Source: Escherichia coli
GTDB taxonomy: Bacteria; Pseudomonadota; Gammaproteobacteria; Enterobacterales; Enterobacteriaceae
Strand: one strand, 5' to 3'
DNA: 64,000 nt
Assembly: GCF_001677475.2 (NCBI RefSeq)
Contig: NZ_CP015229.1
The translations under genes were made by a program, and so were the position numbers. Of this stretch, positions 36,905 to 57,879 are shown piece by piece. Under the pieces are notes generated by a model. That model saw nothing but the letters and a program-made list of their open reading frames with translations, was not told the DNA's origin and ran no database searches. How positions within the stretch are numbered: the first letter of the stretch is position 1; the number at the start of each line of letters is the position of its first letter.

Positions 36905-37864
36905 TTGTTTCCATTTCGTCGTAACGTTCTTGCATTTGCCGCTCTGTTGGCGCTCTCCTCCCCCGTAATTGCTGGCAAACTTGCCATCGTCATTGATGAT
37001 TTTGGGTATCGCCCGCACAACGAAAACCAGGTGCTGGCGATGCCTTCCGCTATCTCCGTCGCTGTATTACCCGATTCACCGCACGCCAGAGAGATGGCAA
37101 CCAAAGCGCATAACAGCGGTCACGAAGTGTTGATTCATCTACCGATGGCACCACTGAGTAAACAGCCGCTGGAGAAAAATACGCTACGCCCGGAGATGAG
37201 CAGCGACGAAATTGAGCGCATTATTCGTAGTGCGGTCAATAATGTGCCCTATGCCGTGGGGATCAACAACCACATGGGCAGCAAGATGACCTCTAACCTG
37301 TTTGGTATGCAGAAAGTGATGCAGGCGCTGGAGCGTTACAATCTTTACTTCCTCGACAGCGTAACCATTGGTAATACCCAGGCGATGCGCGCCGCGCAAG
37401 GCACTGGCGTGAAGGTGATCAAACGGAAGGTGTTCCTCGACGATTCACAGAACGAAGCGGACATCCGTGTGCAGTTCAATCGCGCAATTGATCTGGCGCG
37501 TCGCAACGGTTCGACCATTGCCATTGGGCATCCTCACCCTTCCACGGTACGCGTGTTACAACAGATGGTTTATAACCTGCCGCCAGACATTACGCTGGTG
37601 AAAGCCAGCAGCTTGCTGAATGAACCGCAGGTTGATACGTCTACACCGCCGAAAAACACTGTGCCCGACACACCGCGTAATCCGTTCCGTGGCGTGAAGC
37701 TCTGCAAACCGAAGAAACCGATAGAACCTGTTTATGCTAATCGCTTCTTTGAAGTATTAAGCGAAAGCATCAGCCAGAGCACGCTGATCGTTTACTTCCA
37801 ACATCAGTGGCAAGGCTGGGGCAAACAGCCCGAAGCGGCAAAACTTAACGCTAGCGCAAATTAA
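36905..37864 (+). CDS. yibQ: Divergent polysaccharide deacetylase-family protein YibQ
   Basis: 319-aa ORF; first codon in the track is TTG at 36905, directly after the envC stop; start codon uncertain. Confidence 0.8.
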   Translation: MFPFRRNVLAFAALLALSSPVIAGKLAIVIDDFGYRPHNENQVLAMPSAISVAVLPDSPHAREMATKAHNSGHEVLIHLPMAPLSKQPLEKNTLRPEMSSDEIERIIRSAVNNVPYAVGINNHMGSKMTSNLFGMQKVMQALERYNLYFLDSVTIGNTQAMRAAQGTGVKVIKRKVFLDDSQNEADIRVQFNRAIDLARRNGSTIAIGHPHPSTVRVLQQMVYNLPPDITLVKASSLLNEPQVDTSTPPKNTVPDTPRNPFRGVKLCKPKKPIEPVYANRFFEVLSESISQSTLIVYFQHQWQGWGKQPEAAKLNASAN

Positions 37865-38885
37865 AGGCGCTGCGCGTAATGCGATGGTGCGACCGCGTTT
37901 TGTCGCGCCATTGCCATAAGCGGAAAGACCACAGTAACGCCTGATAACCCACCTTCACGCTGCGCACATTGGTAATCAGGCGCTTATACATACCGGAAGT
38001 AAATATCTCGGCAATCATCCGTTGGCGGGTAATAATATCCGGCTCTTTACGCACCGCATGGCAAACACGCAATGCTTCGTAAGTTATTTGCTGATGAAAT
38101 TCCGGGTAAATCGTAATTTTGTCGGCATAATTTCGATTTAATTTCTCCAGCAGGCGGGTAATCTTAATATAGTGACGTTGATAATTAAGGTTTTTATTCC
38201 CTTGTCTATTCAACCGACTCACTGACGTATTATGCAGATAATATTTATATAACGATTGCTCGGTATATCGCGCACGCAAAGCGTTAAACATGAATTCTGT
38301 TGTCCAGACAATATCCTGATGATGTAATCCGGCTATAAATTTAATGTTATTTTTAACAATAACATCGCGGCGATAAACCCCCATCCAGACAACGTGAGTC
38401 CAACGGCGCGAAGAAAGCCCCATCCGCAGCCAGTCCGGGCCGGTTAATACGCCGGTTGAGCGAAGGCGATCGGTGGGGATGGATTGCCAGGTTTCTCCCG
38501 TTTCACGAAAACACCAATCAGCGTTGCACTGCGCCACGTCGAGGTCGTCCTCTAACGCCATGGTCATCAGCGTTTCGTACATGGTGGGATAGACCTCATC
38601 GTCAGCATCGACAAAAGCGACATATTTTCCCGTTGCCACTTCAATCCCACGATTACGCGCCACCGATGCGCCAGCATTCGCCTGATGCAACAAACGAACG
38701 TGCGGATAGTTTTCTGCGTAATACTTTGCTATTTCAACAGAATTATCCGTTGAACCATCGTTAATAATAATGATTTCCAGAGCAGTCCAGGTTTGCGTAA
38801 TTAAAGATTCCATACAAGTGCGGAAATCATCGCCCGCATTATATAACGGAATAATAACACTAAGTTTATTGGTGCTGTTCATCAT
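37851..38885 (-). CDS. waaH: Family-2 glycosyltransferase WaaH (YibD)
   Basis: 344-aa ORF with GT-A motifs (…IIINDGSTDNS…, …DADD…); 3' end overlaps yibQ convergently. Confidence 0.85.
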   Translation of the reverse strand: MMNSTNKLSVIIPLYNAGDDFRTCMESLITQTWTALEIIIINDGSTDNSVEIAKYYAENYPHVRLLHQANAGASVARNRGIEVATGKYVAFVDADDEVYPTMYETLMTMALEDDLDVAQCNADWCFRETGETWQSIPTDRLRSTGVLTGPDWLRMGLSSRRWTHVVWMGVYRRDVIVKNNIKFIAGLHHQDIVWTTEFMFNALRARYTEQSLYKYYLHNTSVSRLNRQGNKNLNYQRHYIKITRLLEKLNRNYADKITIYPEFHQQITYEALRVCHAVRKEPDIITRQRMIAEIFTSGMYKRLITNVRSVKVGYQALLWSFRLWQWRDKTRSHHRITRSAFNLR

Positions 38886-39123: not shown

Positions 39124-40149
39124 TTAATCCCAGCTCAGAATAACTTTCCCGGACTGGCCCGAACGCATGGCGTCAAAGCCCTTCTGGAAATCATCGATAG
39201 AGAAACGATGGGTAATGATCGGCGAGAGATCGAGGCCAGACTGAATCAGCGCCGCCATCTTGTACCAGGTTTCAAACATCTCACGACCGTAAATACCTTT
39301 AATGAACAAGCCTTTAAAGATCACTTTGGTCCAGTCGATAGACATATCAGACGGTGGAATACCCAGCATCGCAATGCGACCGCCGTGGTTCATGGTGTCG
39401 AGCATGGTACGAAACGCTGGCGGCGCACCGGACATTTCCAGACCGACATCAAAGCCTTCGGTCATGCCTAGCTCCGCCATCACGTCATTGAGATTTTCTT
39501 TCGCGACGTTAACCGCACGGGTGATACCCATTTTGCGCGCCAGCTCAAGGCGGTATTCGTTAACATCAGTAATCACCACGTTACGTGCACCAACGTGTTT
39601 CGCCACCGCCGCCGCCATAATACCAATCGGGCCTGCACCAGAGACCAGCACATCCTCGCCCACCAGATCAAACGACAGCGCGGTATGCACGGCGTTACCG
39701 AAGGGATCAAAAATGGAAGCCAGATCATCGGAGATATTGTCGGGGATTTTGAAAGCGTTGAACGCCGGAATCACCAGATACTCGGCGAAGCAGCCCGGAC
39801 GGTTAACGCCGACGCCGATCGTGTTGCGGCACAGATGGGTACGACCGCCACGACAGTTGCGACAGTGACCGCAGGTGATATGGCCTTCGCCAGAAACGCG
39901 ATCGCCAATCTTGAAGCCTTTCACTTCCTGACCAATACCTACCACTTCACCGACATATTCATGGCCCACGACCATCGGCACCGGGATGGTTTTTTGCGAC
40001 CACTCATCCCAGTTATAGATGTGAACGTCAGTCCCGCAGATGGCTGTTTTACGGATTTTAATCAGCAGATCGTTATGCCCGAGTTCCGGTACAGGAACGT
40101 CGGTCATCCAGATGCCCTCTTCCGCTTTCAGTTTGGATAACGCTTTCAT
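39124..40149 (-). CDS. tdh: L-threonine 3-dehydrogenase
   Basis: 341-aa zinc-dependent MDR-family ORF. Confidence 0.95.
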
Positions 40150-40158
40150 CTCACATCC

Positions 40159-41355
40159 TCAGGCGATAACGCCCAGTTGTTTACCAATACGCGTGAATGC
40201 TTCTACTGCACGCGTAATTTGCTCAGGGGTATGCGCCGCAGACATCTGGGTACGAATACGCGCCTGACCTTTCGGAACGACCGGATAGAAGAAACCGGTG
40301 ACGTAAATGCCCTCTTTTTGCAGCTCACGGGCAAATTTCTGCGCCACTACTGCATCACCAAGCATGACCGGAATAATGGCGTGATCGGCTCCCGCCAGGG
40401 TAAAGCCCGCCGCCGACATTTGCTCACGGAACTGACGCGCGTTCGCCCAGAGACGGTCACGCAGCTCGCTACCCGCTTCAACCATCTCCAGCACTTTGAT
40501 GGACGCGGCAACAATGGCCGGTGCCAGCGAGTTGGAGAACAGGTACGGACGAGAACGCTGGCGCAGCCACTCAACCACTTCTTTGCGCGCCGCGGTATAA
40601 CCACCAGAAGCCCCGCCCAGCGCTTTACCGAGCGTGCCGGTGATAATATCGACCCGGCCCATCACATCGCAGTATTCATGGGAACCACGACCGTTTTCAC
40701 CGACAAAACCTACCGCGTGGGAGTCGTCTACCATCACCAGGGCATCATATTTATCTGCCAGATCGCAAACGCCCTTCAGGTTGGCAATCACGCCGTCCAT
40801 CGAGAACACACCATCGGTGGCAATCAGCACATGACGCGCACCGGCTTCACGCGCTTCTTTCAGACGTGCTTCCAGCTCCTGCATATCGTTGTTGGCATAG
40901 CGATAGCGTTTAGCTTTGCACAGACGCACACCATCAATAATAGACGCGTGGTTCAGTGCGTCGGAGATAATGGCGTCCTCCGCGCCTAACAGCGTTTCGA
41001 ACAGGCCACCGTTAGCATCAAAGCAGGAAGAGTAGAGAATCGCATCTTCCATCCCCAGGAAGGCCGCCAGTTTTTGTTCAAGCTCTTTATGGCTGTCCTG
41101 AGTGCCGCAAATAAAACGCACCGAAGCCATGCCGAAACCGTGAGAATCCATTCCCGCCTTTGCTGCCGCAATCAGATCCGGATGATTCGCCAGCCCGAGA
41201 TAGTTGTTGGCACAAAAGTTAATGACGTGGCTTCCATCAGCCACAGTGATATCTGCTTGCTGCGCAGACGTAATAATGCGCTCTTCTTTAAACAACCCTT
41301 CCGCCCGTGCGGTTTCCAGATCGTTGGTTAACTGCTGATAAAATTCTCCACGCAT
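40159..41355 (-). CDS. kbl: 2-amino-3-ketobutyrate CoA ligase (glycine C-acetyltransferase)
   Basis: 398-aa PLP-dependent ORF, immediately upstream of tdh. Confidence 0.95.
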
Positions 41356-41568
41356 TGCGATTCTCCAGACAGGGCAAATTCCAGCACATATTACCCAAAC
41401 TTATAGGTCGCGACGAGATGACGCGTTAACACTTCTGCAAAATTCAGGATAAATAACGTCCATCAATCTCACTTTTGGCGAATGGCTGAAGCCAACGCCG
41501 TGTAGTGATATGATAGAAGTATTCGTGTCTGAGATTGTCTCTGACTCCATAATTCGAAGGTTACAGTT

Positions 41569-42501
41569 ATGATCATCGTTACCGGCGGCGCGGGCTTTAT
41601 CGGCAGCAACATCGTTAAGGCCCTGAATGATAAAGGCATCACCGATATTCTGGTGGTGGACAACCTGAAAGACGGCACCAAGTTTGTGAACCTGGTGGAT
41701 CTGAATATCGCGGACTATATGGATAAGGAAGACTTCCTGATCCAGATTATGGCTGGCGAAGAGTTCGGTGATGTCGAAGCGATTTTCCACGAGGGCGCAT
41801 GCTCTTCCACCACCGAGTGGGATGGCAAGTATATGATGGATAACAACTATCAATACTCCAAAGAGCTGTTGCACTACTGTCTGGAGCGCGAAATCCCGTT
41901 CCTGTATGCCTCTTCCGCAGCCACCTACGGCGGACGCACCTCCGACTTTATTGAATCCCGCGAATACGAAAAACCACTGAACGTCTACGGTTACTCAAAA
42001 TTCCTGTTTGATGAATATGTTCGTCAAATTCTGCCGGAAGCAAACTCACAGATTGTTGGCTTCCGTTATTTCAACGTTTATGGACCGCGTGAAGGCCATA
42101 AAGGCAGCATGGCGAGCGTCGCTTTCCATCTCAACACCCAGCTTAACAACGGTGAATCGCCAAAACTGTTCGAAGGTAGCGAGAACTTCAAACGCGACTT
42201 CGTCTATGTGGGCGACGTGGCAGATGTAAACCTGTGGTTCCTGGAAAATGGCGTTTCCGGCATCTTCAACCTCGGCACCGGTCGTGCGGAATCCTTCCAG
42301 GCTGTAGCTGATGCTACGCTGGCTTATCACAAGAAAGGCCAGATCGAATACATTCCGTTCCCGGATAAGCTGAAAGGCCGCTACCAGGCGTTCACTCAGG
42401 CAGATCTGACAAATCTGCGCGCGGCGGGTTACGACAAACCGTTCAAAACCGTTGCTGAAGGTGTAACGGAATACATGGCCTGGCTGAATCGCGACGCGTA
42501 A
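41569..42501 (+). CDS. hldD: ADP-L-glycero-D-manno-heptose 6-epimerase
   Basis: 310-aa [23 protein letters not shown]… NAD-binding motif; ATG 41569. Confidence 0.95.
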
Positions 42502-42503
42502 CT

Positions 42504-43550
42504 ATGAAGATTTTGGTGATAGGCCCGTCTTGGGTTGGCGACATGATGATGTCGCAAAGTCTCTATCGCACGCTCCAGGCGCGCTATCCCCAGGCGATAA
42601 TCGACGTGATGGCACCGGCATGGTGCCGTCCGTTATTATCGCGGATGCCGGAAGTTAACGAAGCTATCCCTATGCCTCTCGGTCACGGAGCGCTGGAAAT
42701 CGGCGAACGCCGCAAACTGGGTCATAGTCTGCGTGAAAAGCGCTACGACCGCGCCTACGTCTTACCTAACTCCTTCAAATCCGCATTAGTGCCTTTCTTC
42801 GCGGGTATTCCTCATCGCACCGGCTGGCGCGGCGAGATGCGCTACGGTTTACTCAACGATGTACGCGTGCTCGATAAAGAAGCCTGGCCGCTAATGGTGG
42901 AACGCTATGTCGCGCTGGCCTATGACAAAGGCGTTATGCGTACCGCACAAGATCTGCCGCAACCATTGTTATGGCCGCAGTTGCAGGTGAGCGAAGGTGA
43001 AAAATCATATACCTGTAATCAATTTTCGCTTTCATCAGAACGTCCGATGATTGGTTTTTGCCCGGGGGCGGAGTTTGGTCCGGCAAAACGCTGGCCACAC
43101 TACCACTATGCTGAGCTGGCAAAGCAGCTGATTGATGAAGGTTATCAGGTGGTTCTGTTTGGTTCGGCGAAAGATCATGAGGCGGGCAATGAGATACTCG
43201 CCGCACTGAATACTGAGCAGCAGGCATGGTGTCGGAACCTGGCGGGGGAAACACAGCTTGATCAAGCGGTTATCCTGATTGCAGCCTGTAAAGCCATTGT
43301 CACTAACGATTCTGGCCTGATGCACGTTGCGGCGGCGCTCAATCGTCCGCTGGTTGCCCTGTATGGTCCGAGTAGCCCGGACTTCACACCGCCACTATCC
43401 CATAAAGCGCGCGTGATCCGCCTGATTACCGGCTATCACAAAGTGCGTAAAGGTGACGCTGCGGAGGGTTATCACCAGAGCTTGATCGACATTACTCCCC
43501 AGCGCGTACTGGAAGAACTCAACGCGCTATTGTTACAAGAGGAAGCCTGA
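42504..43550 (+). CDS. waaF: LPS heptosyltransferase II
   Basis: 348-aa GT9 ORF, ATG 3 nt after the hldD stop. Confidence 0.95.
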   Translation: MKILVIGPSWVGDMMMSQSLYRTLQARYPQAIIDVMAPAWCRPLLSRMPEVNEAIPMPLGHGALEIGERRKLGHSLREKRYDRAYVLPNSFKSALVPFFAGIPHRTGWRGEMRYGLLNDVRVLDKEAWPLMVERYVALAYDKGVMRTAQDLPQPLLWPQLQVSEGEKSYTCNQFSLSSERPMIGFCPGAEFGPAKRWPHYHYAELAKQLIDEGYQVVLFGSAKDHEAGNEILAALNTEQQAWCRNLAGETQLDQAVILIAACKAIVTNDSGLMHVAAALNRPLVALYGPSSPDFTPPLSHKARVIRLITGYHKVRKGDAAEGYHQSLIDITPQRVLEELNALLLQEEA

Positions 43551-43553
43551 CGG

Positions 43554-44513
43554 ATGCGGGTTTTGATCGTTAAAACATCGTCGATGGGCGATGTTCTCCA
43601 TACGTTGCCCGCACTCACTGATGCCCAGCAGGCAATCCCAGGGATTAAGTTTGACTGGGTGGTGGAAGAAGGGTTCGCACAGATTCCTTCCTGGCACGCC
43701 GCCGTTGAGCGAGTTATTCCTGTGGCAATACGTCGCTGGCGTAAAGCCTGGTTCTCGGCCCCCATAAAAGCTGAACGCAAAGCGTTTCGTGAAGCGCTAC
43801 AAGCAGAGAACTATGACGCAGTTATCGACGCTCAGGGGCTGGTAAAAAGCGCGGCGCTGGTGACGCGTCTGGCGCATGGCGTAAAGCATGGAATGGACTG
43901 GCAAACCGCTCGCGAACCTTTAGCCAGCCTGTTTTACAATCGTAAACATCATATTGCAAAACAGCAGCACGCCGTAGAACGCACCCGCGAACTGTTTGCC
44001 AAAAGTCTGGGCTATAGCAAACCGCAAACCCAGGGCGATTATGCTATTGCACAGCATTTCCTGACGAACCTGCCTACAGATGCTGGCGAATATGCCGTAT
44101 TTCTTCATGCGACGACCCGTGATGATAAACACTGGCCGGAAGAACACTGGCGAGAATTGATTGGTTTACTGGCTGATTCAGGAATACGGATTAAACTTCC
44201 GTGGGGCGCGCCGCATGAGGAAGAACGGGCGAAACGACTGGCGGAAGGATTTGCTTATGTTGAAGTATTGCCGAAGATGAGTCTGGAAGGCGTTGCCCGC
44301 GTGCTGGCCGGGGCTAAATTTGTAGTGTCGGTGGATACGGGGTTAAGCCATTTAACGGCGGCACTGGATAGACCGAATATCACGGTTTATGGACCAACCG
44401 ATCCGGGATTAATTGGTGGGTATGGGAAGAATCAGATGGTTTGTAGGGCTCCGGGGAAAAGTTTAAATAATCTCAACGGTCAAGCAGTTTTGGAAAAGTT
44501 ATCATCATTATAA
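43554..44513 (+). CDS. waaC: LPS heptosyltransferase I
   Basis: 319-aa GT9 ORF. Confidence 0.95.
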   Translation: MRVLIVKTSSMGDVLHTLPALTDAQQAIPGIKFDWVVEEGFAQIPSWHAAVERVIPVAIRRWRKAWFSAPIKAERKAFREALQAENYDAVIDAQGLVKSAALVTRLAHGVKHGMDWQTAREPLASLFYNRKHHIAKQQHAVERTRELFAKSLGYSKPQTQGDYAIAQHFLTNLPTDAGEYAVFLHATTRDDKHWPEEHWRELIGLLADSGIRIKLPWGAPHEEERAKRLAEGFAYVEVLPKMSLEGVARVLAGAKFVVSVDTGLSHLTAALDRPNITVYGPTDPGLIGGYGKNQMVCRAPGKSLNNLNGQAVLEKLSSL

Positions 44514-44522
44514 AGGTAAAAC

Positions 44523-45788
44523 ATGCCAACCTTCATTAAACTTCATTCATGGAAACCTTACACTCTGAAATCATCTATGATTTTAGAGATAATAACTTAT
44601 ATATTATGTTTTTTTTCATTAATAATTGCATTCGTCGATAACACATTCAGCATAAAGATGTATAACATCACTGCTATAACTTGCTTATTGGCGCTAATTT
44701 TACGTGGCAGACAAAAAAATTACAATATAAAAAATCTTATTCTGCCCCTTTCTATAATTATTATAGGCTTGCTTGATTTAATTTGGTATTCTATATTTAA
44801 AGTAGATAACTCGCCATTTCGTGCTACTTACCATAGTTATTTAAATACTGCCAAAATATTTATATTTGGTTCTTTTATTGTTTTTTTAGCACTAACTAGT
44901 CAGCTAAAATATAAAAAAGAGAGTGTATTATACATTTTATATTCTCTGTCATTTATAATTGCTGGATATGCAATGTATATTAATAGCATTCATGAATATG
45001 ACCGTATTTCTTTTGGTGTAGGAACGGCAACAGGAGCGGCATATTCAACAATGCTAATAGGGATAGTTAGTGGTGTTGCGATTCTTTATACTAAGAAAAA
45101 CCATCCTTTTTTATTTTTATTAAATAGTTGCGCGGTACTTTATATTCTGGCGCTGACACAAACCAGAGCAACACTACTCCTGTTTCCTGTAATTTGTGCT
45201 GTTACATTAATAGCTTATTATAATAAATCACCTAAGAAATATACTTCCACTATTGTTCTTCTAATTGCTATATTGGCTAGTATTGTAATTATATTTAATA
45301 AACCAATACAGAATCGCTATAATGAAGCATTAAATGATTTAAACAGTTATACCAATGCTAATAGCGTGACTTCCTTAGGTGCAAGGCTGGCAATGTACGA
45401 AATTGGTTTGGATATATTCAAAAAGTCACCTTTTTCATTTAGATCTGCAGAGTCGCGCGCTGAAAGTATGAATTTGTTAGTTGCAGAACACAACAGGCTA
45501 AGAGGGGCATTGGAGTTTTCTAACGTACACCTACATAATGAGATAATTGAAGCAGCGTCACTAAAAGGTCTGATGGGGATTTTTTCCACCATTTTCCTCT
45601 ATTTTTCACTATTTTATACAGCATATAAAAAACGCGCATTGGGTTTGTTGATATTAACGCTTGGCATAGTGGGGATTGGACTCAGTGATGTAATCATATG
45701 GGCACGCAGCATTCCAATTATCGTTATATCCTCTATAGTCCTCTTGCTTGTTATTAATAACCGCAACAATACTATTAATCAAGAATAG
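44523..45788 (+). CDS. waaL: O-antigen ligase (K-12 core-type WaaL)
   Basis: 421-aa polytopic membrane ORF, very AT-rich; sequence matches my recollection of the K-12 WaaL variant. Confidence 0.85.
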   Translation: MPTFIKLHSWKPYTLKSSMILEIITYILCFFSLIIAFVDNTFSIKMYNITAITCLLALILRGRQKNYNIKNLILPLSIIIIGLLDLIWYSIFKVDNSPFRATYHSYLNTAKIFIFGSFIVFLALTSQLKYKKESVLYILYSLSFIIAGYAMYINSIHEYDRISFGVGTATGAAYSTMLIGIVSGVAILYTKKNHPFLFLLNSCAVLYILALTQTRATLLLFPVICAVTLIAYYNKSPKKYTSTIVLLIAILASIVIIFNKPIQNRYNEALNDLNSYTNANSVTSLGARLAMYEIGLDIFKKSPFSFRSAESRAESMNLLVAEHNRLRGALEFSNVHLHNEIIEAASLKGLMGIFSTIFLYFSLFYTAYKKRALGLLILTLGIVGIGLSDVIIWARSIPIIVISSIVLLLVINNRNNTINQE

Positions 45789-45795
45789 ACAAGTT

Positions 45796-45822
45796 TAAGA
45801 AGTGAGTTTTAACTCACTTCTT
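45796..45822. terminator. Hairpin at the convergent waaL / waaU junction
   Basis: Inverted repeat aagaagtgagtt / aactcacttctt; overlaps the waaU stop, so acts for both converging operons if functional. Confidence 0.4.
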
Positions 45823-46887
45823 ATCTATACAAATTAATCTCTTTACTGAATCAGTTAAAATTTCAGTATCGATATCTTTTATCGTAAGTGTTGGAGATAC
45901 TATTTGTATAGATTGATGATTATTCGGGGCCCAAATTAAATGTGAGGGATATTCTGGTGTACGTGAATTAGGATAAAATGCAAGAGTTGGTTTATGATAA
46001 GCAGTAGCGATATGAACAAGAGCAGTATCAACAGAAATGACAAAATCACTATACTTAGTCAACGCGACAGTATAAATAAACTCGTCAAATGGTAGTGTTT
46101 CAATTTCAGGTATTGGTATTGTCAATAAATCTTGCGGTAACCCAGTAAATATCACTCGATAATTCTCAAACTGGACTTTCACTTCTTGATATATAACTTT
46201 TATTTGCTCAAACGTAAGTCGGCATATTTTTTTTGCACCTAATGGATTAATGATGACTATCCTTGTATTTCCAATAAAATCTATTATTTTATTTTCAACA
46301 TCTACAGGCAAATGCAAGTCGTAGTCGGTGGAAAATTCACCCTCACCATAAATATGCTTCAGTATTTCTATTGCTCGTGTACTCATATGTTCTTTTAAAC
46401 ATTCATCATGGGGATGGTAAAATGAATAGTAACGCTTATACCATTGATCAAAACCCAGAATGTAAGAATATTTTAAACTTGATAATATTAAACTATGCTT
46501 AAATGAGGGCATAGTTTCAAAGGGGTCTAATACAATATCGAACTGTAAATCCCGCAGATGCTTACATAGAGTAAGCATTTTAAGGGAACCTGTTGATTCT
46601 TTAATACAGAATCCAAATATATTTTTATTGTTAGAGAGAAACTCCCCACCCTTTCTATTTGTGAGAATAGTTATTTTAACTCCTTTACTATAAAGCTCAC
46701 GATAAATCGAACTTAATACAATTAAATCACCGAGTTTATTATTATCATGAATGATAAGGCATGATTTAACTTGTGCGAGATCTGTAACTTGATTATTGAT
46801 TTTTTTACGAAATAAAAAAGAAAGAAAATTAATCTTGATTTTGTTTATATAAAATCTTTTCTTTTTGTGAAAAGTTCCTAAACGCAT
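45814..46887 (-). CDS. waaU: LPS heptosyltransferase IV WaaU (WaaK)
   Basis: 357-aa GT9-like ORF, last gene of the long waaQ operon. Confidence 0.85.
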   Translation of the reverse strand: MRLGTFHKKKRFYINKIKINFLSFLFRKKINNQVTDLAQVKSCLIIHDNNKLGDLIVLSSIYRELYSKGVKITILTNRKGGEFLSNNKNIFGFCIKESTGSLKMLTLCKHLRDLQFDIVLDPFETMPSFKHSLILSSLKYSYILGFDQWYKRYYSFYHPHDECLKEHMSTRAIEILKHIYGEGEFSTDYDLHLPVDVENKIIDFIGNTRIVIINPLGAKKICRLTFEQIKVIYQEVKVQFENYRVIFTGLPQDLLTIPIPEIETLPFDEFIYTVALTKYSDFVISVDTALVHIATAYHKPTLAFYPNSRTPEYPSHLIWAPNNHQSIQIVSPTLTIKDIDTEILTDSVKRLICIDKK

Positions 46888-46966
46888 TTTTATACCATAA
46901 TATTTTAGTTTCAGGATGATTAATTAGCATAAGAATCAGTTGAAGCTTTATATTCCATTTTTTTTC

Positions 46967-47782
46967 TTATCTTATCTTATCCTGTGACTTTGACTCTTCT
47001 GAACTGATATCGAGAGGCTTAATAAATGGAATTACATCGTAAGAAATAGCCGTATCATCTGACAAATTATAAATATTAATATCTTCTACATTATCACGCA
47101 TAAAACGGAAAAATGGCAAGATTTTAAACAAATCCCTACTCAATTCCGAGGGCATAGGATTGTTACTTTCGTCATAGAAACGAGTACAACTACCAGTTAA
47201 ATCAAGACCAGAACAAATAATCCGCGCATACTTCAGCGAATAGGCTATTTGGATTGCAGCAAAGGCAACGGTATGGCATGAACAATAACCGAGATTAATA
47301 TCCTTGCAAAAGCCAACCAGACGACCTTTTTTAGAAAAAGGTACAGAAATCAGGAGCTCTTTATGAATTCGGCTCAAAATATTAAACTTAATCTTCTTAA
47401 TCAATCCACCTTTTTCTCTGCGGTAAAATGAACGTAGTACCAAGCAGTTTTGAAGGATGTACCGTTTATCTTCTTCAGAAGCATGTTCATAAACATCAAC
47501 ATTTACGATGGTATAACGACTTCTCTGGCTAAATTTATAAAAATCATCACGTCGTTGATGTAAAAAGCGAACATCAGTAAGTACATAAATATACGGAATA
47601 ATATTATGACTTAATAGATATTGCGCAGAACCATTGACAGCAATAACATCCCTTGTCTGCAGCACTGACAATGGTGTTTTTTGCGATGTGGGGCCGGAAA
47701 GAAAAATAATAACATCATCAGACGTTTTACTTTCTATCAGGTTCTCAACATCTTTTTTGCCAATGTATCTAATATTCTTCAT
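46967..47782 (-). CDS. waaZ: LPS core biosynthesis protein WaaZ
   Basis: 271-aa ORF in the K-12-type position between waaY and waaU; start codon not verified. Confidence 0.8.
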   Translation of the reverse strand: MKNIRYIGKKDVENLIESKTSDDVIIFLSGPTSQKTPLSVLQTRDVIAVNGSAQYLLSHNIIPYIYVLTDVRFLHQRRDDFYKFSQRSRYTIVNVDVYEHASEEDKRYILQNCLVLRSFYRREKGGLIKKIKFNILSRIHKELLISVPFSKKGRLVGFCKDINLGYCSCHTVAFAAIQIAYSLKYARIICSGLDLTGSCTRFYDESNNPMPSELSRDLFKILPFFRFMRDNVEDINIYNLSDDTAISYDVIPFIKPLDISSEESKSQDKIR

Positions 47783-47853
47783 GATAAACCTGTGAAATAA
47801 GAACTCCGCATAGAAATGTCCTGATGAAGACGTTTAAACGTAAGACGTTTACT

Positions 47854-48552
47854 TTATCGTGCTGGCTTCCCTTTCAAACGCCGCATAAGATTACGTATTT
47901 TTTTACGATAAACTAAAATATAATAACCGAGATCTTTAATCTCATTCTTAATACCATAATGTCGCTCTAAATCAATACGATCTTTCGCTTTACGTTGTGC
48001 AGATGCCCGTTTTCCTGAAAGATCAATAATGCGTACTTCACCATTTTCAATAATAAAATTACCACGGTGAGGATCACCAGATACCATACCATGTTCGTGC
48101 AATGAACGGATTGATTGTTGAATTTTATTTTTTAACGTTTCATCAATGTCGGGGATATCACACAACTCTACGCCATCGATATATTCGATAAGCATGATAT
48201 AAGTATGGACAAAACGTAATGTTTTCCGTTCTGCCAATAAATAAAAATCATTGAGTGTATTTAACCCTTCATTTCTTACTTTTTGGGTTTGCTCAAAAAG
48301 GCGTTCGTAATAATCACCTTTTAACAGAGACTTAAAGAAACGTTCGTTACGCTTAACTTTCGGAGAAAAAACCTTAAGAATCAATTTGCCGTAATCGGTA
48401 TCAATAAGCATAACTTTTGTATCATCAATAGAACGAAAAACCTTGATGATATTTATATTATAAGACAAGAAGTCATTTAATACATTGAGATACTTTGAAT
48501 TGTTTTCATCGGTAAAAACAACCAAGTCTTTGATCTTGCTCTTCTGAAACAT
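47854..48552 (-). CDS. waaY: LPS core heptose II kinase WaaY
   Basis: 232-aa kinase-like ORF. Confidence 0.85.
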   Translation of the reverse strand: MFQKSKIKDLVVFTDENNSKYLNVLNDFLSYNINIIKVFRSIDDTKVMLIDTDYGKLILKVFSPKVKRNERFFKSLLKGDYYERLFEQTQKVRNEGLNTLNDFYLLAERKTLRFVHTYIMLIEYIDGVELCDIPDIDETLKNKIQQSIRSLHEHGMVSGDPHRGNFIIENGEVRIIDLSGKRASAQRKAKDRIDLERHYGIKNEIKDLGYYILVYRKKIRNLMRRLKGKPAR

Positions 48553-48569
48553 AATAAACCAGTTAAGTG

Positions 48570-49586
48570 TTATTTACGGTAATATTTTCGGCAAAGATAA
48601 CAGACTCCTGCTATAATTCCTGAGATATAGTTATGCTGCACTAAAAGATGTTTATATCTTTTTTTAAATTCAATAATTGATTTTGCATCTCGTGGAGAGT
48701 CATCTTTCCATGGTGAATTTTCTAAAGCTATTTTATAGTATTTTACCGATGGATAAATTGCCCATTTGTGCCACGGTTTAGTTGCACCTGTATAATGAAT
48801 AAGCAGAGTACTTTCTGTAATCAGCTTTTTATAGTTTTGATGTGTTTTGTCTTTTAATTCACTTTTAATTGTATAAATTGTATTGTACTCACGAGGCAAA
48901 AATATTGTCATCCCTTTCAGTAAGACATTCATAACATCCTGATCAGGGTATTTATAAACATTATCTTTACTCATAAGAATAGACAACGCTTTTTCGGTTA
49001 GTTTTGCGTTAGCCCATTTTTTTAAATCTAAATAAACGACACCGGAATTAAAGTACTGCCCAAGTAATTCAGGATCAGACAACCTGGATGCCGCCTTTTC
49101 CTGCATTGGGTCAACATCTTTAACAACAGCAGCAACCGCTCCGTTTAAATCCAGATGCAATAGTTGGCTAATATCGCCTTTACAAACAACATCTGCATCA
49201 AGATAAAGCAAACGATTAAGCGTTAAACCCAATAATTGAAATGCAAATAAACGGAAGTACATTGCTCTTGACCAAACTTGTGTACAAGGCAAGCACTGAA
49301 GATTATCAGTATTTATTCTATAAAGTGTGATTCTTAATTGGTATTGCTCAGCAAGTTTTGCGACTTTTTGAAAGAAATCGTCGCTATAAACATCAGCAAT
49401 AATATAAAAATCAAGATTAACATGTCGATTATTGATGACAATTGAAGTAATGGATACACCTACAGCATCAAGATAATTTGCATCGACACCATAGGCAACA
49501 TTTAAACTTTCAGCAGTATTTTCATCAATAAGCCTAAAATCCCAAGCTTTAACTTTATCTATCTCTATGGCAGGAAATGAGTCCAC
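48570..49586 (-). CDS. waaJ: GT8 LPS alpha-1,2-glucosyltransferase WaaJ (WaaR)
   Basis: 338-aa family-8 glycosyltransferase. Confidence 0.85.
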   Translation of the reverse strand: MDSFPAIEIDKVKAWDFRLIDENTAESLNVAYGVDANYLDAVGVSITSIVINNRHVNLDFYIIADVYSDDFFQKVAKLAEQYQLRITLYRINTDNLQCLPCTQVWSRAMYFRLFAFQLLGLTLNRLLYLDADVVCKGDISQLLHLDLNGAVAAVVKDVDPMQEKAASRLSDPELLGQYFNSGVVYLDLKKWANAKLTEKALSILMSKDNVYKYPDQDVMNVLLKGMTIFLPREYNTIYTIKSELKDKTHQNYKKLITESTLLIHYTGATKPWHKWAIYPSVKYYKIALENSPWKDDSPRDAKSIIEFKKRYKHLLVQHNYISGIIAGVCYLCRKYYRK

Positions 49587-49625
49587 AAGGCTACCCTTAT
49601 ATCATTACTTTATAGTTTCCCAGTT

Positions 49626-50645
49626 TTAATTCTTTATCTTTTCAATAAAATAAAAAAGATAGTTGCTAAATCCTTTTAGATATCTATGCTTTTTAAGCAT
49701 ATGTTTTGCGCTATATCTTAATTGATTGCTATTATTCGGTTTCAGCAACGCCGTACTCTTCCATGGCGAAGCATTTTTTGCCTCCATAAAGGCTTGTGAT
49801 ACAGGATAATCCCAAGCCCAATCATGCCAGGGCTTGGTTGGACCGATATAGTGGATAAAAATAGTATCGTTGGTTACTGGGTTTGTAAAACTTTCTTTGA
49901 GTTGATAGTTTAAGCTAAACTGGGTGTTATATTTAATATCAGCAAAAATAAGTCTGTCTGCCAGCAACATATTTAATACATCCTGATCAGGATGTGTTAT
50001 TTTTTTGACTATTTCCGAATCATTTAGCATTGCAATGGCTCGTGCAGAAACCTGCTGAGCCGCCCATTGGTCAGTATTAATCAATAAAAAACCGGAGTTA
50101 AAGTAACCTTTAGCAATTCCCGCAACACCTAACGAATGTGCGCGTTTTTCCCACCAGTCAGCTTGCCCTTCTGTAACAACCATTGCGACTTTATCGTCAG
50201 GAAATGAGAATTTAATTAGGGGCTCAATAGTCCCCTGACAAATGATATCTGCATCCAGATAAAGGACTTTAGCCGCCTTATTAATAAAGTAATCTGCAAT
50301 AACAAAACGAAAATATATTGCATGAGTCCAGTTCTTTGTGCTAGGCAATGAGCGCAGTCGATCACCATTAATCAGATATATTTTAATTCTGGTTTTATAC
50401 TGCAACGCCAGTGCATCAAAATATTTACGATCATCATCACCAAAATAATCAGTAAAAATATGGAAGCACAATCGACTTCCTTCATTATACTTTAATATTG
50501 AAGCAATCGAAATTCCGCAACCAAATAGAAAATTTTTGTCAGTTCCATAAGCGATGTCCAGACAAAGATTTTCTGTTTCTACTTTATGATTATAATCAAT
50601 AACTGAATTAAGAAACTCAGTCTCCTGGAAAAACACCTGCTGCAT
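49626..50645 (-). CDS. waaO: GT8 LPS alpha-1,3-glucosyltransferase WaaO (WaaI)
   Basis: 339-aa family-8 glycosyltransferase, paralogous to the adjacent waaJ. Confidence 0.85.
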   Translation of the reverse strand: MQQVFFQETEFLNSVIDYNHKVETENLCLDIAYGTDKNFLFGCGISIASILKYNEGSRLCFHIFTDYFGDDDRKYFDALALQYKTRIKIYLINGDRLRSLPSTKNWTHAIYFRFVIADYFINKAAKVLYLDADIICQGTIEPLIKFSFPDDKVAMVVTEGQADWWEKRAHSLGVAGIAKGYFNSGFLLINTDQWAAQQVSARAIAMLNDSEIVKKITHPDQDVLNMLLADRLIFADIKYNTQFSLNYQLKESFTNPVTNDTIFIHYIGPTKPWHDWAWDYPVSQAFMEAKNASPWKSTALLKPNNSNQLRYSAKHMLKKHRYLKGFSNYLFYFIEKIKN

Positions 50646-51724
50646 TATTTCCTCCGGGAAATAGCAGAAATAATTATCTTATGTAATCTATCGTAATACT
50701 TCGATTTATAAAACTTATCGATCGACTCAGGAATTTTTTCATGTTCGATATGAATTTCACCTGCTATATATTTATTGAGAAGAGTTACAAAACCAGCAAT
50801 ATCTCCCGGTTGATACAGATGACCATTAACATCAGGTTGAATAATGTCAGCAGGCCCGGAGACACAATCGGCGCTGATGCAAGGAATTCCCCATGACAAG
50901 GCTTCAAGTAGGGTCATTGGGAAACCTTCAAAAGATGACGTGAGCAATAACGCACTCACTTTTTTAATATCTTGCTGGACCAATTCCCAGGGATGTTGTT
51001 GCCAACCATACCAGACAACTCGATCATCAATATTTAATTCTCTACCATAAGCCTGGCATTTTTCGAAATCGGAGCCATCTCCCAATACATGAAGTTTCCA
51101 GTCACCTTGCACTTGTGATAAGCCATCAAGGAGGTCTTTAACCCGCTTCTGGCCCTCGAATTTCATACGCCCAACATAAATGAACGTTGCCGTTTCACCT
51201 TCCTCAGGCCCAGGAATAACTGTGTCTTTAGCTTCGACTGGATTAAAAATAACATTTATCGTCGATTCTGGTACACCCCGATTAATCATTTGCTGTTTAA
51301 TGCCAGAGCTGATGGCTAAATGATAATCGGCACAGGTGATATATTCAGCATGTTTTTTGTGATCTAAAGAAAAATGCGGCCATGAAAATACAGGTACATC
51401 AATTCCCGATTTTTTACGAGCTTTGGCCGCATACAAACACGAGATCACGTCAATACAAATAACAACATCTGGCTGATAATCCTGAAGCCATTTGCTTAAA
51501 GCATGAATATGTTTCGCCCGACGCAAACAACCTAAGCGAATATTGGAAAATGAACACGAGTACTTAATACCGTCCAGCCATCCCTTATCCATTTTGTCAT
51601 TACGACAAAAGAAAAACATTTCACTATGGATATGTTGTTGCCTGAAGGTAGTAATAACATCACGAATGACTGTTTCCATGCCGCCAAATCCAGAAACAGC
51701 TTCGCCGATAAATGCTATTTTCAT
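50645..51724 (-). CDS. waaB: GT4 LPS alpha-1,6-galactosyltransferase WaaB
   Basis: Track ORF 369 aa; start taken at ATG 51724 (MKIAFIGEAVSGFGGMETV…, 359 aa); ATG 51736 and GTG 51754 are alternatives. Confidence 0.85.
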   Translation of the reverse strand: MKIAFIGEAVSGFGGMETVIRDVITTFRQQHIHSEMFFFCRNDKMDKGWLDGIKYSCSFSNIRLGCLRRAKHIHALSKWLQDYQPDVVICIDVISCLYAAKARKKSGIDVPVFSWPHFSLDHKKHAEYITCADYHLAISSGIKQQMINRGVPESTINVIFNPVEAKDTVIPGPEEGETATFIYVGRMKFEGQKRVKDLLDGLSQVQGDWKLHVLGDGSDFEKCQAYGRELNIDDRVVWYGWQQHPWELVQQDIKKVSALLLTSSFEGFPMTLLEALSWGIPCISADCVSGPADIIQPDVNGHLYQPGDIAGFVTLLNKYIAGEIHIEHEKIPESIDKFYKSKYYDRLHKIIISAISRRK

Positions 51725-51767
51725 TGAAACTCTCATTAATTGAGTAAAACTCACTGTTTTAATGGTT

Positions 51768-52692
51768 TTATTTTTCTATAAAATCAGAAACAATTGTTGA
51801 CATCATTTTATCAGGGCTGAATTTATATAAACTATCATAATCCATTGGTTTAACAGATGAGTTAATAAAATACTCTAACTTATCCCAATCATCATGCCCC
51901 ATTATAAAAAAGCGAGATTCACTATAGATTTCTGAACCAAGGATATTTATATTATTAGTAATTAATTTTTTATTGAAAAATAGTGCCTCAAGTATACGAA
52001 GAGTCCAGCCAGATTGGTTTTCTTTAGTTATATCAATAATTATATTAGCATTTAATATGCTCTTCATAAGGTAATTGCTTTTCAATCAAATACTTTGAAG
52101 TCGGAGATGATGTCTTATCTTTGACAACATTAAAATCTAGCTTACATCCTAGTGCTGTTAATCTATCGGCTAATTCATTAATTATTTGAAGACGTCCTTT
52201 ATCACGACCAAGAAAAAAACATATTGGCTGACTGTTATTTTTGTCAGATAAACTATAATTTATAATTTCATCCATTCCTATAGGAAAAAATCATTTTATT
52301 GCCTTGGTCTTTTCATTCCCTATAAATCTATGCTCAAAATTATAGATAATATCAAAATAATTAGAGTTATCAAAAATAAAATCTTCGCTGACAGTATTTC
52401 TTAGAAGTAATAGTTTACGATAATTAATATTTCTTAATATTTGCTTGTTAATACCTTTATTAATGACACTGTCATTAAAGATAATTATATCATCCTTTTT
52501 TACAGCATTTAGGTGATGTTTGATAAATAATCGCCCCAACCATGCATTATCCATCCCTAATTTCGAAATTTTCTTATTAACCCAGTTGTATTTGTTTGGT
52601 GTTGTTATATTTTTTATCTTGTACTTTTTTTTCAGGTACTGGATCATCTTTAATTCATAATCTGCAACCCAGTTTATAAAATAAATAGTCAT
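51768..52692 (-). pseudogene. waaS: waaS-like LPS core gene disrupted by an in-frame TGA and a frameshift
   Basis: Three consecutive minus-strand ORF fragments (52291..52692, 52045..52275, 51768..52085) together span 925 nt where one ~311-aa gene is expected. Fragments 1 and 2 share a frame and are separated by TGA (52291-52293); fragments 2 and 3 overlap in different frames. Confidence 0.6.
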
Positions 52693-52728
52693 AATGAAGT
52701 TAATTCCAGTACATACTGATAAATATTT

Positions 52729-53526
52729 TTATAATCCTTTGCGTTGTGTTCGCTCTTTAATATGCTCGGCCTTAACACTTGCCATGTTCAATAAATTCCG
52801 TTCAAGAGATAATATCTTACGTAAAGGCATCCCAAAATAAACCTTCATAAATCGCCAGATATCTCTCTGCGTTAGACCAATATTCATTGATGAGAAATAT
52901 AAACCAATCAAATCTTTATCCCGCCAACGACGTGGTACTTTTGCCCGTATCTGCGCGCGATGCAGGTCTATTACCGAAATTTTTAACCCATCTTCCCGGC
53001 CAGTAAATGGCAAATGGAGCAAAAAGTGGCAAATATAACAGTCGCGGTGATTTATCCCTGCGGCGTGCATTTTGTGCACCATGGTTGCCACACGCGCGAT
53101 CAGCATACGCTTAATATGTACATCAGGCGGGTTGACCGCCCAATCTGCACAATAATCTTCAAGGCTAATCGTGGGAGTGAGATCTTCGGTAATAATAAAT
53201 GATGTGCGAGTTAATGGATTTAACCCTTTTTCACCAAACCCTATTCCGTGCATCGTATCAACACCGACATCATGCAGTCGATGAATAGCGTGCCACTCTC
53301 TGTCTGCGCCTAAAACGGGCATCCGCAATGAGAGCAGGTTTTTTATAATTTCTTTTAAAGTCGTCCCTTTGTGCCACTTGAGGAAATAGCTTTTCCCGGC
53401 CAGTTCAAAGCGTAATGTGCGACGCGTCTCGAGTTCACGAAAGACCTCGCCATTCAGTTTTTTAACTTCTGCAAAGGCATCTTTACCACGCCAGAGTGTG
53501 GCAAGTGGCTCTTTTAATTCAACCAT
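52729..53526 (-). CDS. waaP: LPS core heptose I kinase WaaP
   Basis: 265-aa kinase-like ORF, overlaps the waaG 3' end by 8 nt. Confidence 0.9.
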
Positions 53527-54643
53527 CTAAACCACCAGTAATGATATCTGCCGCTTTCTCCGGCAAGCTATACAAATCCTGAGTATCGGCGTAATACCGA
53601 GCATTCTCCGCCCAAGCCATGCGCAATGGAGATTGAGTTAACGCTTTACGTAAAACGTCATTTAATTGTTCCTGGGAGAAAGGTTCAGCGATGACCGTTC
53701 CACAATTAGCATCCGCAATATAATGCGCGTACCCACATACCGCTGTTGTTAAAACAGGTAATCCAGCAGTGATCGCTTCAAGAAGAACGATACCCGCGGC
53801 TTCCTGATAAGCGGGATGCAGTAATAAATCAGCGGCTGCCATTAATTCTGACACATCATTGCGACCGGAGAAGAAATGCACATTGCTCCGCACGCCGAGT
53901 TTTTCTGCCAGCGCTTCAAACTTTCGCGGTTTATCCTGCCCAACAACAAATAACAGCGTATTGTGACGTAATGATTCCGGTAACGATGCCAAAGCTTCAA
54001 TTGAGCGATCCACACCCTTACGGCCAAAATCTGATCCAACCTGCAGTAATAAGTTTTGTTGTTCAGTGATGCCATTTTTCTGGCGATAAATTTCACGACT
54101 GTTTGGGATTTGCGCGCTGTATTTTCTGTCCGGGTAGATACCAGGAGGAAGAATTTGAAAACGTTCTGGTTCAGTTTGGTAATGCTTCTGGAAATCGGCG
54201 ATTTGCTTATCCGTCAGCATCATGAGTTTCGTCGGTTTACCATGCTCGAAAGTCGCTCGCTCAAATGCAGCATAATGGCGATAGCGTGATGTTAAACGAT
54301 AGAACAAGCCCTTTTCTTGCGCCACTTTCTCGGCATAACAGACATCAGCGGCAAAATAAACATCCAGCCCTGGCATCTTATTAAAGCCAACAACCCGATC
54401 AGCGGGATGTCCCTTCAGATGGTTTTGAACCCAGGCATAATATTCTGCATTACGTCCATGGTTAGTATGGGATTTAACCGGTACGCGAATAAGCTCAAAT
54501 GCATCCGGGCAATCGCCTTCCCACGACTGTGTATATACCCGAACATGGTGGCCCCGTGTGGCAACTGTTGAGGCAATACGCATAAAGTCACGCTGTAACC
54601 CACCAAATGGAAAATATTTATATAAGCAAAACGCCACGATCAT
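53519..54643 (-). CDS. waaG: GT4 LPS glucosyltransferase I WaaG
   Basis: 374-aa ORF recognised as WaaG. Confidence 0.95.
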
Positions 54644-55674
54644 AATTGTGCATTCCTGTCAGCTGAAGGGGCATCTTCTGGCAACAGCTTTTCCGTAGCG
54701 GCAATGACATCTTCCGCTGGAATAACAGAAAGATATTTTTTGTTGCGGTCAAGTTCGTGCCGGGTAGGCATTTTTTGATAATTCCCCGCCCAGAACTGAA
54801 TAATATTCTCGGTCCATGGACGCCAGAATACATGATCAGTAGCCCCAAACAGGCTAATAACTGGCGTGTTCACCGCCGCCGCAATATGCCCCGGCGCAGA
54901 ATCCACACCAATAAAGAGCACTGCATGATCAATTAATGCGCCCAGTTCAGGAAAACGTGTTTTACCGGCAAGGCCGGTAATAGGTTTTGTTTGGCAGCCT
55001 CGTGCAATTTCATCTACGCAAGCGAGATCATCTGCCGAAGGGCCACAAGTCAGCACAACCTGATAACCACGATGTTGCAACGCATCGATAACCATAGAAA
55101 ATTTATCGTTATCCCAGCACTTAAATAGCTGTCGGGCTGTCGGCTGGATGACGACATAATGATCTTTCACGCCCAGTGCATCTAATTCCTGGCGCATTTT
55201 CTTCCAGCAATCATCAGCATAACTCATTGTTGTTTCAGTATAAAAATCGGTAATACCTAATGACTCAAGGACCGACAAATTACGCTCAACAATATGTGTA
55301 CCGTGTATAGGCGCTAAGTGTGTAAAGCTTTTTTTCCAAATGCCATGCTGCCGATGAGCATAAAGCTGCGATATTTTCATCCGTGCAGGTAAACAACGTA
55401 CCAGCAGGGCCACCATCCACTGATCCGTAAGATTAATGACCAGGTCGTAATTATTCGCACGCAGAGTTTTTATCAGTGAAAGTGCATTTTTAATTTTATC
55501 GAATGTTCCCGCACCTTTATTGCTTATACCATAGAGTGCATTAATTTCTGGGTTTTCAGATAAAATCGGAATTGTATCCTGGTAAAGCAGCATATCGATT
55601 TTAGCATTGGGATAATTCTGCTTGAGTGTACTGATTACAGGAGTAGTTAATAACATATCTCCGTGATATCGCAT
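54640..55674 (-). CDS. waaQ: LPS heptosyltransferase III WaaQ
   Basis: Track ORF begins at GTG 55710 (356 aa); I choose ATG 55674 (MRYHGDMLL…, 344 aa); start not certain. Confidence 0.85.
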   Translation of the reverse strand: MRYHGDMLLTTPVISTLKQNYPNAKIDMLLYQDTIPILSENPEINALYGISNKGAGTFDKIKNALSLIKTLRANNYDLVINLTDQWMVALLVRCLPARMKISQLYAHRQHGIWKKSFTHLAPIHGTHIVERNLSVLESLGITDFYTETTMSYADDCWKKMRQELDALGVKDHYVVIQPTARQLFKCWDNDKFSMVIDALQHRGYQVVLTCGPSADDLACVDEIARGCQTKPITGLAGKTRFPELGALIDHAVLFIGVDSAPGHIAAAVNTPVISLFGATDHVFWRPWTENIIQFWAGNYQKMPTRHELDRNKKYLSVIPAEDVIAATEKLLPEDAPSADRNAQL

Positions 55675-55757
55675 CTTTATGACCAGGATTTTTCGAAATG
55701 GCTTTTCCACTAGCGACTCTTTTGTGTGATTGTCTGGTTAAGTTAAGCAGAAAAAAG

Positions 55758-55769
55758 CACGCTACCGCC
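55758..55769 (-). promoter_or_regulatory. ops element (RfaH recruitment site) in the waaQ operon leader
   Basis: Exact 12-mer GGCGGTAGCGTG on the transcribed (minus) orientation, reverse complement of cacgctaccgcc at 55758-55769, ~85 nt upstream of the waaQ start. Confidence 0.75.
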
Positions 55770-56114
55770 CCAGGCTCAACAGCTACCCGAATACTGATAA
55801 CGCACTTACTTTGACGCGCTAGTGTATCATTTCTTTCGCAGCAATCCGACCCGAATGATTTTTATACACAAAATATGATTTAACCATAAAAATCATATAG
55901 ATAAAATTTTGCATACAGAGAATCCAGATATTGTCTATGTAAAGTTGCAATCCTGGCTGAAATTCAATGAATCGCATAAAAATACAAAAAAATGAAGATT
56001 TAGCAGCAGATCAGCTCAAACAGAGACTATTTAAGTCAAAAACGGGAAAAGTAATGGTAAAGCCACAGCTAAATACATAGAATCCCCAGCACATCCATAA
56101 GTCAGCTATTTACT

Positions 56115-57879
<1,765 letters not shown>

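Follow-up and report, generated by a model that had tools for sequence, protein, structure and literature searches.

The DNA analysed here (the window) is a 64-kb stretch from Escherichia coli, the 81-min region, and the features around its kbl-hldD intergenic region are collected in Table 1. The two genes that bound this spacer are transcribed away from each other. The encoded Kbl protein is 100% identical to the annotated kbl product of two E. coli RefSeq loci (L001 and L002), whilst the HldD protein does not differ from its counterpart in K-12 MC4100. In the RefSeq annotation of near-identical genomes the flanking genes are named kbl and rfaD, the latter being the label given to hldD in all matching genomes. 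The kbl-tdh operon begins with kbl, and the hldD-waaF-waaC-waaL operon with hldD. Downstream, the gene order runs hldD, waaF, waaC and waaL and then enters an outer-core operon of the K-12 type on the minus strand, the outer-core set comprising waaL, waaU, waaZ, waaY, waaJ, waaO and waaB.

Table 1. Features of the kbl-hldD region of the window, with three comparison genes from other genera (locus handle before the coordinates).
Feature	Coordinates	Strand	Basis or remark
waaH	37851-38885	-	ORF
tdh	39124-40149	-	ORF
kbl, glycine C-acetyltransferase; left boundary of the spacer	40159-41355	-	398-aa ORF
kbl/hldD divergent intergenic region, uninterrupted, htrL-less	41356-41568	.	213 bp
kbl-proximal half, presumed kbl-tdh promoter/regulatory region	41356-41459	-	common to htrL+ and htrL- genomes
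157-aa antisense shadow ORF, not a gene	41401-41874	-	no Pfam; frame not conserved
Segment missing from K-12-type genomes (linker and native hldD promoter)	41460-41520	.	61 bp
Variable linker, cassette landing site	~41460-41475	.	alignments A1, A2
Predicted hldD-waaFC(L) promoter	41485-41514	+	GCTGAAG-N14-TGnTATGAT
Predicted hldD 5' leader, start ~41521	41521-41568	+	fold, sequence reading
Leader hairpin GUC-U-GAGA/UUG/UCUC-U-GAC	41527-41545	+	fold
Shine-Dalgarno GAAGG, 8 nt before ATG	41556-41560	+	
hldD (rfaD/gmhD/htrM), ADP-glyceromanno-heptose 6-epimerase	41569-42501	+	310-aa ORF
htrL of Enterobacter sp. Ag1	L023 2842-3699	-	81% aa identity
WaaB-like GT4 glycosyltransferase in kbl-hldD spacer, Citrobacter sp. 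Cu233	L008 2546-3697	-	383 aa
WaaB-like GT4 glycosyltransferase in kbl-hldD spacer, C. youngae	L070 2552-3703	-	383 aa

Taken as a whole, the waa region (41400-57000) is a divergent K-12-type core, with 94.4% identity to K-12 over hldD-waaZ, and its nearest relative amongst 5,426 complete genomes is the dog isolate 19KM1831, at 98.4% identity. Several small irregularities are found along it. The gap between the hldD stop codon and the waaF start codon (42499-42506, TAActATG) is 2 bp, the result of a 7-bp deletion from the 9-bp gap of most E. coli; this junction length is shared with the 12 best-matching genomes, within a band of 95-99% identity that holds 159 of 5,423 genomes. The waaZ gene (ORF 46967-47782, minus strand) carries at its 3' end a 5-bp TCTTA insertion (46965-46969) relative to the closest genome, which shortens or alters the C-terminus of WaaZ; the protein has 271 aa here, whereas that of 19KM1831 has 285 aa and that of K-12 has 283 aa. 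An apparent waaS (rfaS) pseudogene (51768-52692, minus strand) is broken into three ORF pieces (52291-52692, 52045-52275 and 51768-52085), with an 11-bp deletion near 52059 relative to 19KM1831, whose rfaS is an intact gene of 936 bp. A JUMPstart RNA (RF01707, 53 bits) lies upstream of waaQ at 55758-55796 on the minus strand, and the stretch between waaQ and waaA (55875-56026) is unusually rich in indels when set against the closest genome.

The kbl-hldD spacer itself contains no gene. A scan with a 20-aa minimum found no ORF wholly inside it, in agreement with the preliminary description, which had reported a 213-bp interval devoid of ORFs; of the ORFs that overlap it, one of 20 codons enters hldD by 4 nt and the other four extend into kbl or hldD. 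The product expected here from K-12, a member of the HtrL/YibB family (PF09612/TIGR02192, ~270-285 aa), is not encoded between kbl and hldD in the window. When the 285-aa YibB/HtrL sequence was used as a TBLASTN query against the whole 64 kb (E<=100), the best match was at chance level (E=2.5) and lay elsewhere. Two chance matches fell within 2 kb of the spacer, at 41236-41210 and 43531-43653, with none inside the spacer and none in 41356-41900. Likewise, BLASTN of the K-12-type segment that carries the gene, 1,283 bp in length, gave only chance matches of 13-44 nt elsewhere in the window. Neither cassette DNA, nor a pseudogene, nor a deletion scar was found in the spacer, which aligns along its full length with those of htrL-less outgroups. 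The lack of any remnant implies that nothing was deleted in place.

Two small reading frames that touch the spacer were rejected as genes. The 157-aa minus-strand ORF, which had been suspected of being a shadow ORF, behaves as one: it belongs to no Pfam family, 306 of its 474 bp (~65%) are antisense to hldD, and the tail encoded by the spacer differs or is broken by stop codons in K-12-type E. coli, Citrobacter, Enterobacter, Kluyvera and others. A 20-codon upstream ORF (41510-41572), whose stop codon overlaps the hldD ATG, has its start codon within the -10 hexamer of the predicted promoter, upstream of the predicted transcription start, and in other genera the leader lengths vary out of frame.

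Comparison with K-12-type genomes locates the difference precisely. As the preliminary description had stated for K-12, the derivative MC4100 does carry htrL/yibB, encoding 285 aa, between kbl and hldD. BLASTN of 40159-42501 against MC4100 aligns 40159-41459 at 98.2% identity and, as a second block, 41521-42501 at 96.6%, on either side of a yibB-bearing segment confined to K-12-type genomes, and the same breakpoints (41459 and 41521) were obtained against strain KSC207. Thus, 61 bp of the window (41460-41520) correspond to the 1,283 bp of the K-12 type, in which yibB lies on the minus strand and the whole spacer measures 1,435 bp in both MC4100 and KSC207, in contrast to 213 bp without yibB here. 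Outside this replacement, the window and the K-12 kbl-htrL(yibB)-hldD arrangement (b3617-b3619) share the flanking genes and their orientation, the kbl-proximal half of the spacer, the hldD leader from about +1 and the downstream hldD-waaF-waaC-waaL operon. The left half of the spacer is 100% identical to that of the htrL+ strain KSC207 up to 41459.

The 213 bp are composed of two conserved parts joined by a short linker. The kbl-proximal half contains blocks that are invariant across 16 genera (GCACATATTACCCAAA, ACGAGATGA and ATAAAT.AC; alignment A1) and presumably drives kbl-tdh. The linker is the sole non-conserved stretch, and the remainder of the 61-bp segment is a conserved promoter (alignments A1 and A2). 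The predicted hldD promoter comprises GCTGAAG (41485-41491), including a -35-like CTGAAG (41486-41491), which is separated by 17 bp from the -10 hexamer TATGAT (41509-41514), with an extended -10 TG at 41506-41507. The GCTGAAG and TGnTATGAT elements are invariant in 13 of 13 aligned alleles, amongst them htrL+ alleles and alleles with a GT4 gene (alignment A2). More broadly, TGnTAT[G/T/C]AT precedes the hldD ATG by 55-97 nt in 69 of the 83 sequences inspected, which were the window, the two E. coli RefSeq loci (L001 and L002) and 80 species loci.

These features conform to the extended -10 class of sigma-70 promoters. The TG dinucleotide stands one base upstream of a near-TATAAT hexamer, TGaTATGAT matching the TGnTATAAT consensus at the TG and at five of six hexamer positions, and the weak -35 element (CTGAAG, three of six) at a 17-bp spacing is typical of the class. 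A sigma-70/terminator consensus scan of 41300-41650 reported no promoter or terminator; the scanner missed the hldD promoter because its -35 element matches at only three of six positions, a limitation of the scanner rather than evidence of absence. From this combination of motif and conservation we infer that hldD in the window is most likely transcribed from a native extended -10 promoter, CTGAAG-17 bp-TGaTATGAT (41486-41514), giving an mRNA that would start near 41521 and carry a 5' hairpin followed by the GAAGG ribosome-binding site. The invariant GCTGAAG may do more than serve as a -35 element and could, for instance, bind a factor. The gmhD/htrM operon is reported to be induced at high temperature (PMC8745692), a behaviour that the extended -10 motif does not explain.

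The leader that follows this promoter is predicted to fold. On its own, the E. coli hairpin is weak (-6.4 kcal/mol), folding no better than shuffled sequences when taken as a single sequence (z=+1.0). Across Enterobacterales, a hairpin nevertheless recurs at the same leader position with unrelated stems that differ between genera: over 62 distinct leaders, each folded individually and compared with dinucleotide shuffles, the mean z was -1.78, with z below 0 in 59 and p<=0.05 in 32, whereas a control segment taken from upstream averaged -0.06. The position of the hairpin is therefore conserved despite turnover of its sequence. RNAalifold, applied to a MAFFT alignment of 42 leaders, returned no consensus structure because hairpins of different length fall out of register. 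In Rfam, no family matched the spacer at the gathering threshold or at E<=10 save for a chance snoRNA match (E=6.7). As the hairpin leaves the Shine-Dalgarno sequence unsequestered, a classical RNA thermometer is argued against, and any regulatory role of the structure, such as stabilising the mRNA, is presumptive.

The wider distribution of the spacer bears on its polarity. Species loci were fetched with HldD and then screened with Kbl, HtrL and HldD; the 80 loci used are the best of ~600 matches, one genome per species outside E. coli, with Salmonella and Klebsiella left out. In this set of the best 80 of ~600, about 50 species have kbl and hldD as divergent neighbours 212-261 bp apart without htrL, and a spacing of 212-216 bp is seen in 18 other species of Enterobacteriaceae. 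Spacer lengths are 213 bp in E. albertii, 214 bp in Citrobacter, 215 bp in Enterobacter and 216 bp in Kluyvera, and reach 232 bp in Photorhabdus, 240 bp in Serratia and 244-261 bp in Yersinia. The spacer of the window is 93.4% identical to that of E. albertii, which has the same length, the same promoter motifs and the same leader, and the 61-bp segment absent from K-12 aligns base for base with the htrL-less outgroups. The window thus displays the ancestral arrangement, with kbl and hldD adjacent, divergent and 213 bp apart and the conserved blocks present. Given these ~50 outgroup species, the htrL-less spacer is ancestral and the K-12 state derived. Such an order-wide ancestral state still leaves room for htrL to have been carried at some point by the lineage of the window.

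Other genes do occupy the site in a few of these genomes. Amongst the best 80 of ~600 loci, only Enterobacter sp. Ag1 carries htrL at the same position, its product being 81% identical and its spacer 1,439 bp long. The hldD leader of Ag1 is almost identical to the E. coli/Citrobacter type, unlike the leaders of its relatives, which suggests that the whole segment was transferred between genera. In Citrobacter sp. Cu233 and C. youngae, the same site as that of E. coli htrL holds the WaaB-like GT4 glycosyltransferase gene, whose NF007396 score of 381 bits falls slightly short of the cut-off, and both loci retain the GCTGAAG...TGnTATGAT promoter. Plesiomonas and Grimontia have a TetR-like gene in the kbl-hldD spacer. 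A Providencia metagenome-assembled genome encodes a 51%-identical HtrL homologue (L068 7115-7960, plus strand) about 2 kb downstream of hldD, outside the spacer.

Within E. coli both states are common. A 1.1-kb query spanning the junction matched 5,424 of 5,426 complete genomes; the spacer is uninterrupted in 3,465 of the 5,426 (64%), and the 1,283-bp htrL cassette is present in exactly 1,959 (~36%), always on the chromosome. As the two sets sum to the full 5,424 matching genomes, htrL, when present, resides at the kbl-hldD locus, and a contiguous spacer implies a genome free of htrL. The preliminary description had regarded the absence of htrL as a strain-specific difference; this view does not hold, since the absence is the majority state of the species and ancestral across Enterobacterales. 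Nor is the state tied to the type of outer core, as genomes with a K-12 core occur both without htrL (E138, with the 213-bp spacer) and with it (K-12 laboratory strains); genomes of other core types (R2-like and others) are likewise found in either state, O157:H7 and O111:H8 being htrL+ and Nissle 1917 and APEC O2:K1 htrL-. Published pan-genome work lists htrL/yibB as a variable waa-associated gene (PMC8303582). The spacer of the window is 99.5% identical to those of htrL-less E. coli, with a single mismatch in 213 bp; strains 7/2, E138, 19KM1831 and Nissle 1917 have the same 213-bp length, promoter motifs and leader, whereas the downstream waa genes of the window differ from theirs by small indels. 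Over 24 kb, the complete genome most similar to the window is that of 19KM1831, which likewise lacks htrL.

The K-12 allele has the properties of horizontally acquired DNA, being polymorphic within the species, atypical in base composition (36% GC, against 49% for the window) and matched by a homologous cassette at the equivalent site of another genus. The sequence GGGCTGAAGGGATTCGGATGTGATGGTATGAT at the right end of the K-12 cassette is homologous to the native hldD promoter but has diverged from it (~50% identical over 45 bp). The cassette therefore imports its own copy of this promoter, and hldD keeps an equivalent promoter in both alleles. Within the cassette, a terminator-like hairpin (L001 3656-3687) separates htrL from the regulatory half on the kbl side. 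Neither IS ends nor a target-site duplication were seen in the K-12 cassette. An 11-bp inverted repeat, GATAAATAACG, found both at the left junction and, within the cassette, upstream of htrL, was considered and set aside as compatible with chance (~0.3 expected in AT-rich DNA). The absence of IS ends and of a target duplication, the low GC content and the homologous cassette in another genus suggest that the DNA was acquired by homologous recombination, with the conserved flanks in kbl and hldD as the probable sites of exchange. In the pig isolate PEC301 (NZ_CM168013.1), yibB is interrupted by an IS30-like ISApl1 element, and its fragment carries the PGAP label 'WlaTC/HtrL family glycosyltransferase'.

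The protein carried by the cassette is a clear member of its family (Pfam PF09612; NCBIfam TIGR02192 and NF008462), the K-12-type HtrL scoring 1.4e-129 on PF09612 and 8e-132 on TIGR02192. Relatives, which PGAP names 'WlaTC/HtrL family glycosyltransferase', are found in LPS/LOS loci of E. coli, Acinetobacter baumannii OCL5 and Campylobacter, whereas the window encodes none. A search of PDB sequences with HtrL detected no meaningful relative by sequence. To our knowledge, HtrL/YibB has no established role in E. coli, and its absence from 64% of genomes indicates that it is dispensable. Distant homologues of the family (~25% identity over 88% of the protein) are encoded by the Xanthomonas jumbo phages Xoo-sp13 (E 2e-8) and XacN1 (2e-7).

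Apparent mobile carriers of htrL did not withstand scrutiny. The sole plasmid match, NZ_CP141089.1, is 4.94 Mb long and evidently a mislabelled chromosome, and the 99.6% matches to 'Campylobacter phage' are E. coli K-12 DNA in unverified records. In one of these (MG065686.1, 'Campylobacter phage A18a', UNVERIFIED; L086 1-6588), 6.6 kb are 100% identical to the K-12 stretch waaL-waaC-waaF-hldD-htrL-kbl and correspond to the start of the MC4100 locus (L084), a locus that takes in the end of tdh as well. This K-12 segment of the A18a record is contamination or a chimeric assembly and not a phage-borne htrL. The A11a record (MG065691.1) has the same 99.6% HtrL match as A18a and is known from that match alone.

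Taken together, these observations favour, with a probability of about 0.9, the reading that the spacer represents the divergent promoter region of kbl-tdh and hldD-waaFCL in its intact, ancestral form, and that K-12 and ~36% of E. coli carry an acquired cassette. Under this proposal, an AT-rich 1.3-kb cassette would have been gained horizontally in the latter genomes, bringing htrL/yibB with its own promoter region, a terminator hairpin and an hldD promoter copy of foreign, diverged sequence. The cassette occupies the short variable linker, with the regulatory half of kbl to one side and the promoter of hldD to the other; kbl would be driven from the conserved left half.

The alternative that deserves most attention is that the ancestor of this strain was htrL+ and that its cassette was replaced homologously by an htrL-less allele from another E. 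coli. Both alleles segregate within the species and within the K-12 outer-core type, the left flank matches an htrL+ strain without a difference right up to the junction, and HldD has N46, as in K-12, in place of the D46 of the htrL-less strains compared; these three points make recombination around the locus evident. Against such a secondary loss stand the near-identity of the spacer to those of htrL-less strains, the htrL-less state of the nearest genome, 19KM1831, and the fact that zero cassette-derived bases are left in the spacer. We regard it as improbable, although a lineage that never had htrL and one in which it was cleanly replaced predict the same data and are indistinguishable here.

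The two remaining alternatives have little in their favour. An assembly collapse or a laboratory deletion might have removed htrL, and the 7-bp, 5-bp and 11-bp indels that separate the waa locus of the window from its nearest relative could be cited for it. However, the same 213-bp junction, one base different, occurs in independently assembled complete genomes, 3,465 genomes are contiguous at this point, the E. albertii spacer is of equal length and 93.4% identical, and an artefact would not recreate a conserved ancestral promoter; this explanation can hardly be credited. Next to no weight can be given to the idea that a degraded htrL pseudogene or some other small gene fills the interval. 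Minus-strand ORFs of 157 aa and 70 aa do overlap the spacer, but no HtrL similarity was detected by TBLASTN at E<=100, and the longer of the two lacks a Pfam match and a reading frame conserved outside E. coli. Moreover, all 213 bp align with htrL-less outgroup spacers and consist mostly of conserved blocks, so that a remnant has nowhere to lie.

Beyond the preferred reading of an intact ancestral promoter region, a broader and more speculative one can be put forward, which we consider rather doubtful: that the spacer holds an undescribed, order-wide cis-regulatory module serving the heat-inducible heptose operon, made up of the invariant promoter and a positionally fixed hairpin near the 5' end of the leader, and that the linker just upstream is a recurrent landing pad for LPS glycosyltransferase cassettes. 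Such cassettes might be swapped between genera by homologous recombination through their flanks, each bringing its own promoter copy; examples would be the WaaB-like GT4 gene of Citrobacter and the htrL genes of E. coli and Enterobacter sp. Ag1.

The htrL-less spacer is real, already known and ordinary, being implicit in thousands of annotated genomes; only the order-wide conservation of the hldD promoter and leader hairpin, and the reuse of the linker as a site for cargo, are mildly new. For the strain, the consequence is the lack of an accessory, dispensable protein of the YibB/HtrL family. For comparative work, K-12 misleads as a yardstick at kbl-hldD, as what appears to be missing relative to K-12 is what K-12 has gained. 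That the promoter of the heptose operon is preserved in both alleles is a minor point of interest, and the promoter-plus-hairpin module is a candidate that could underlie the reported heat induction of hldD.
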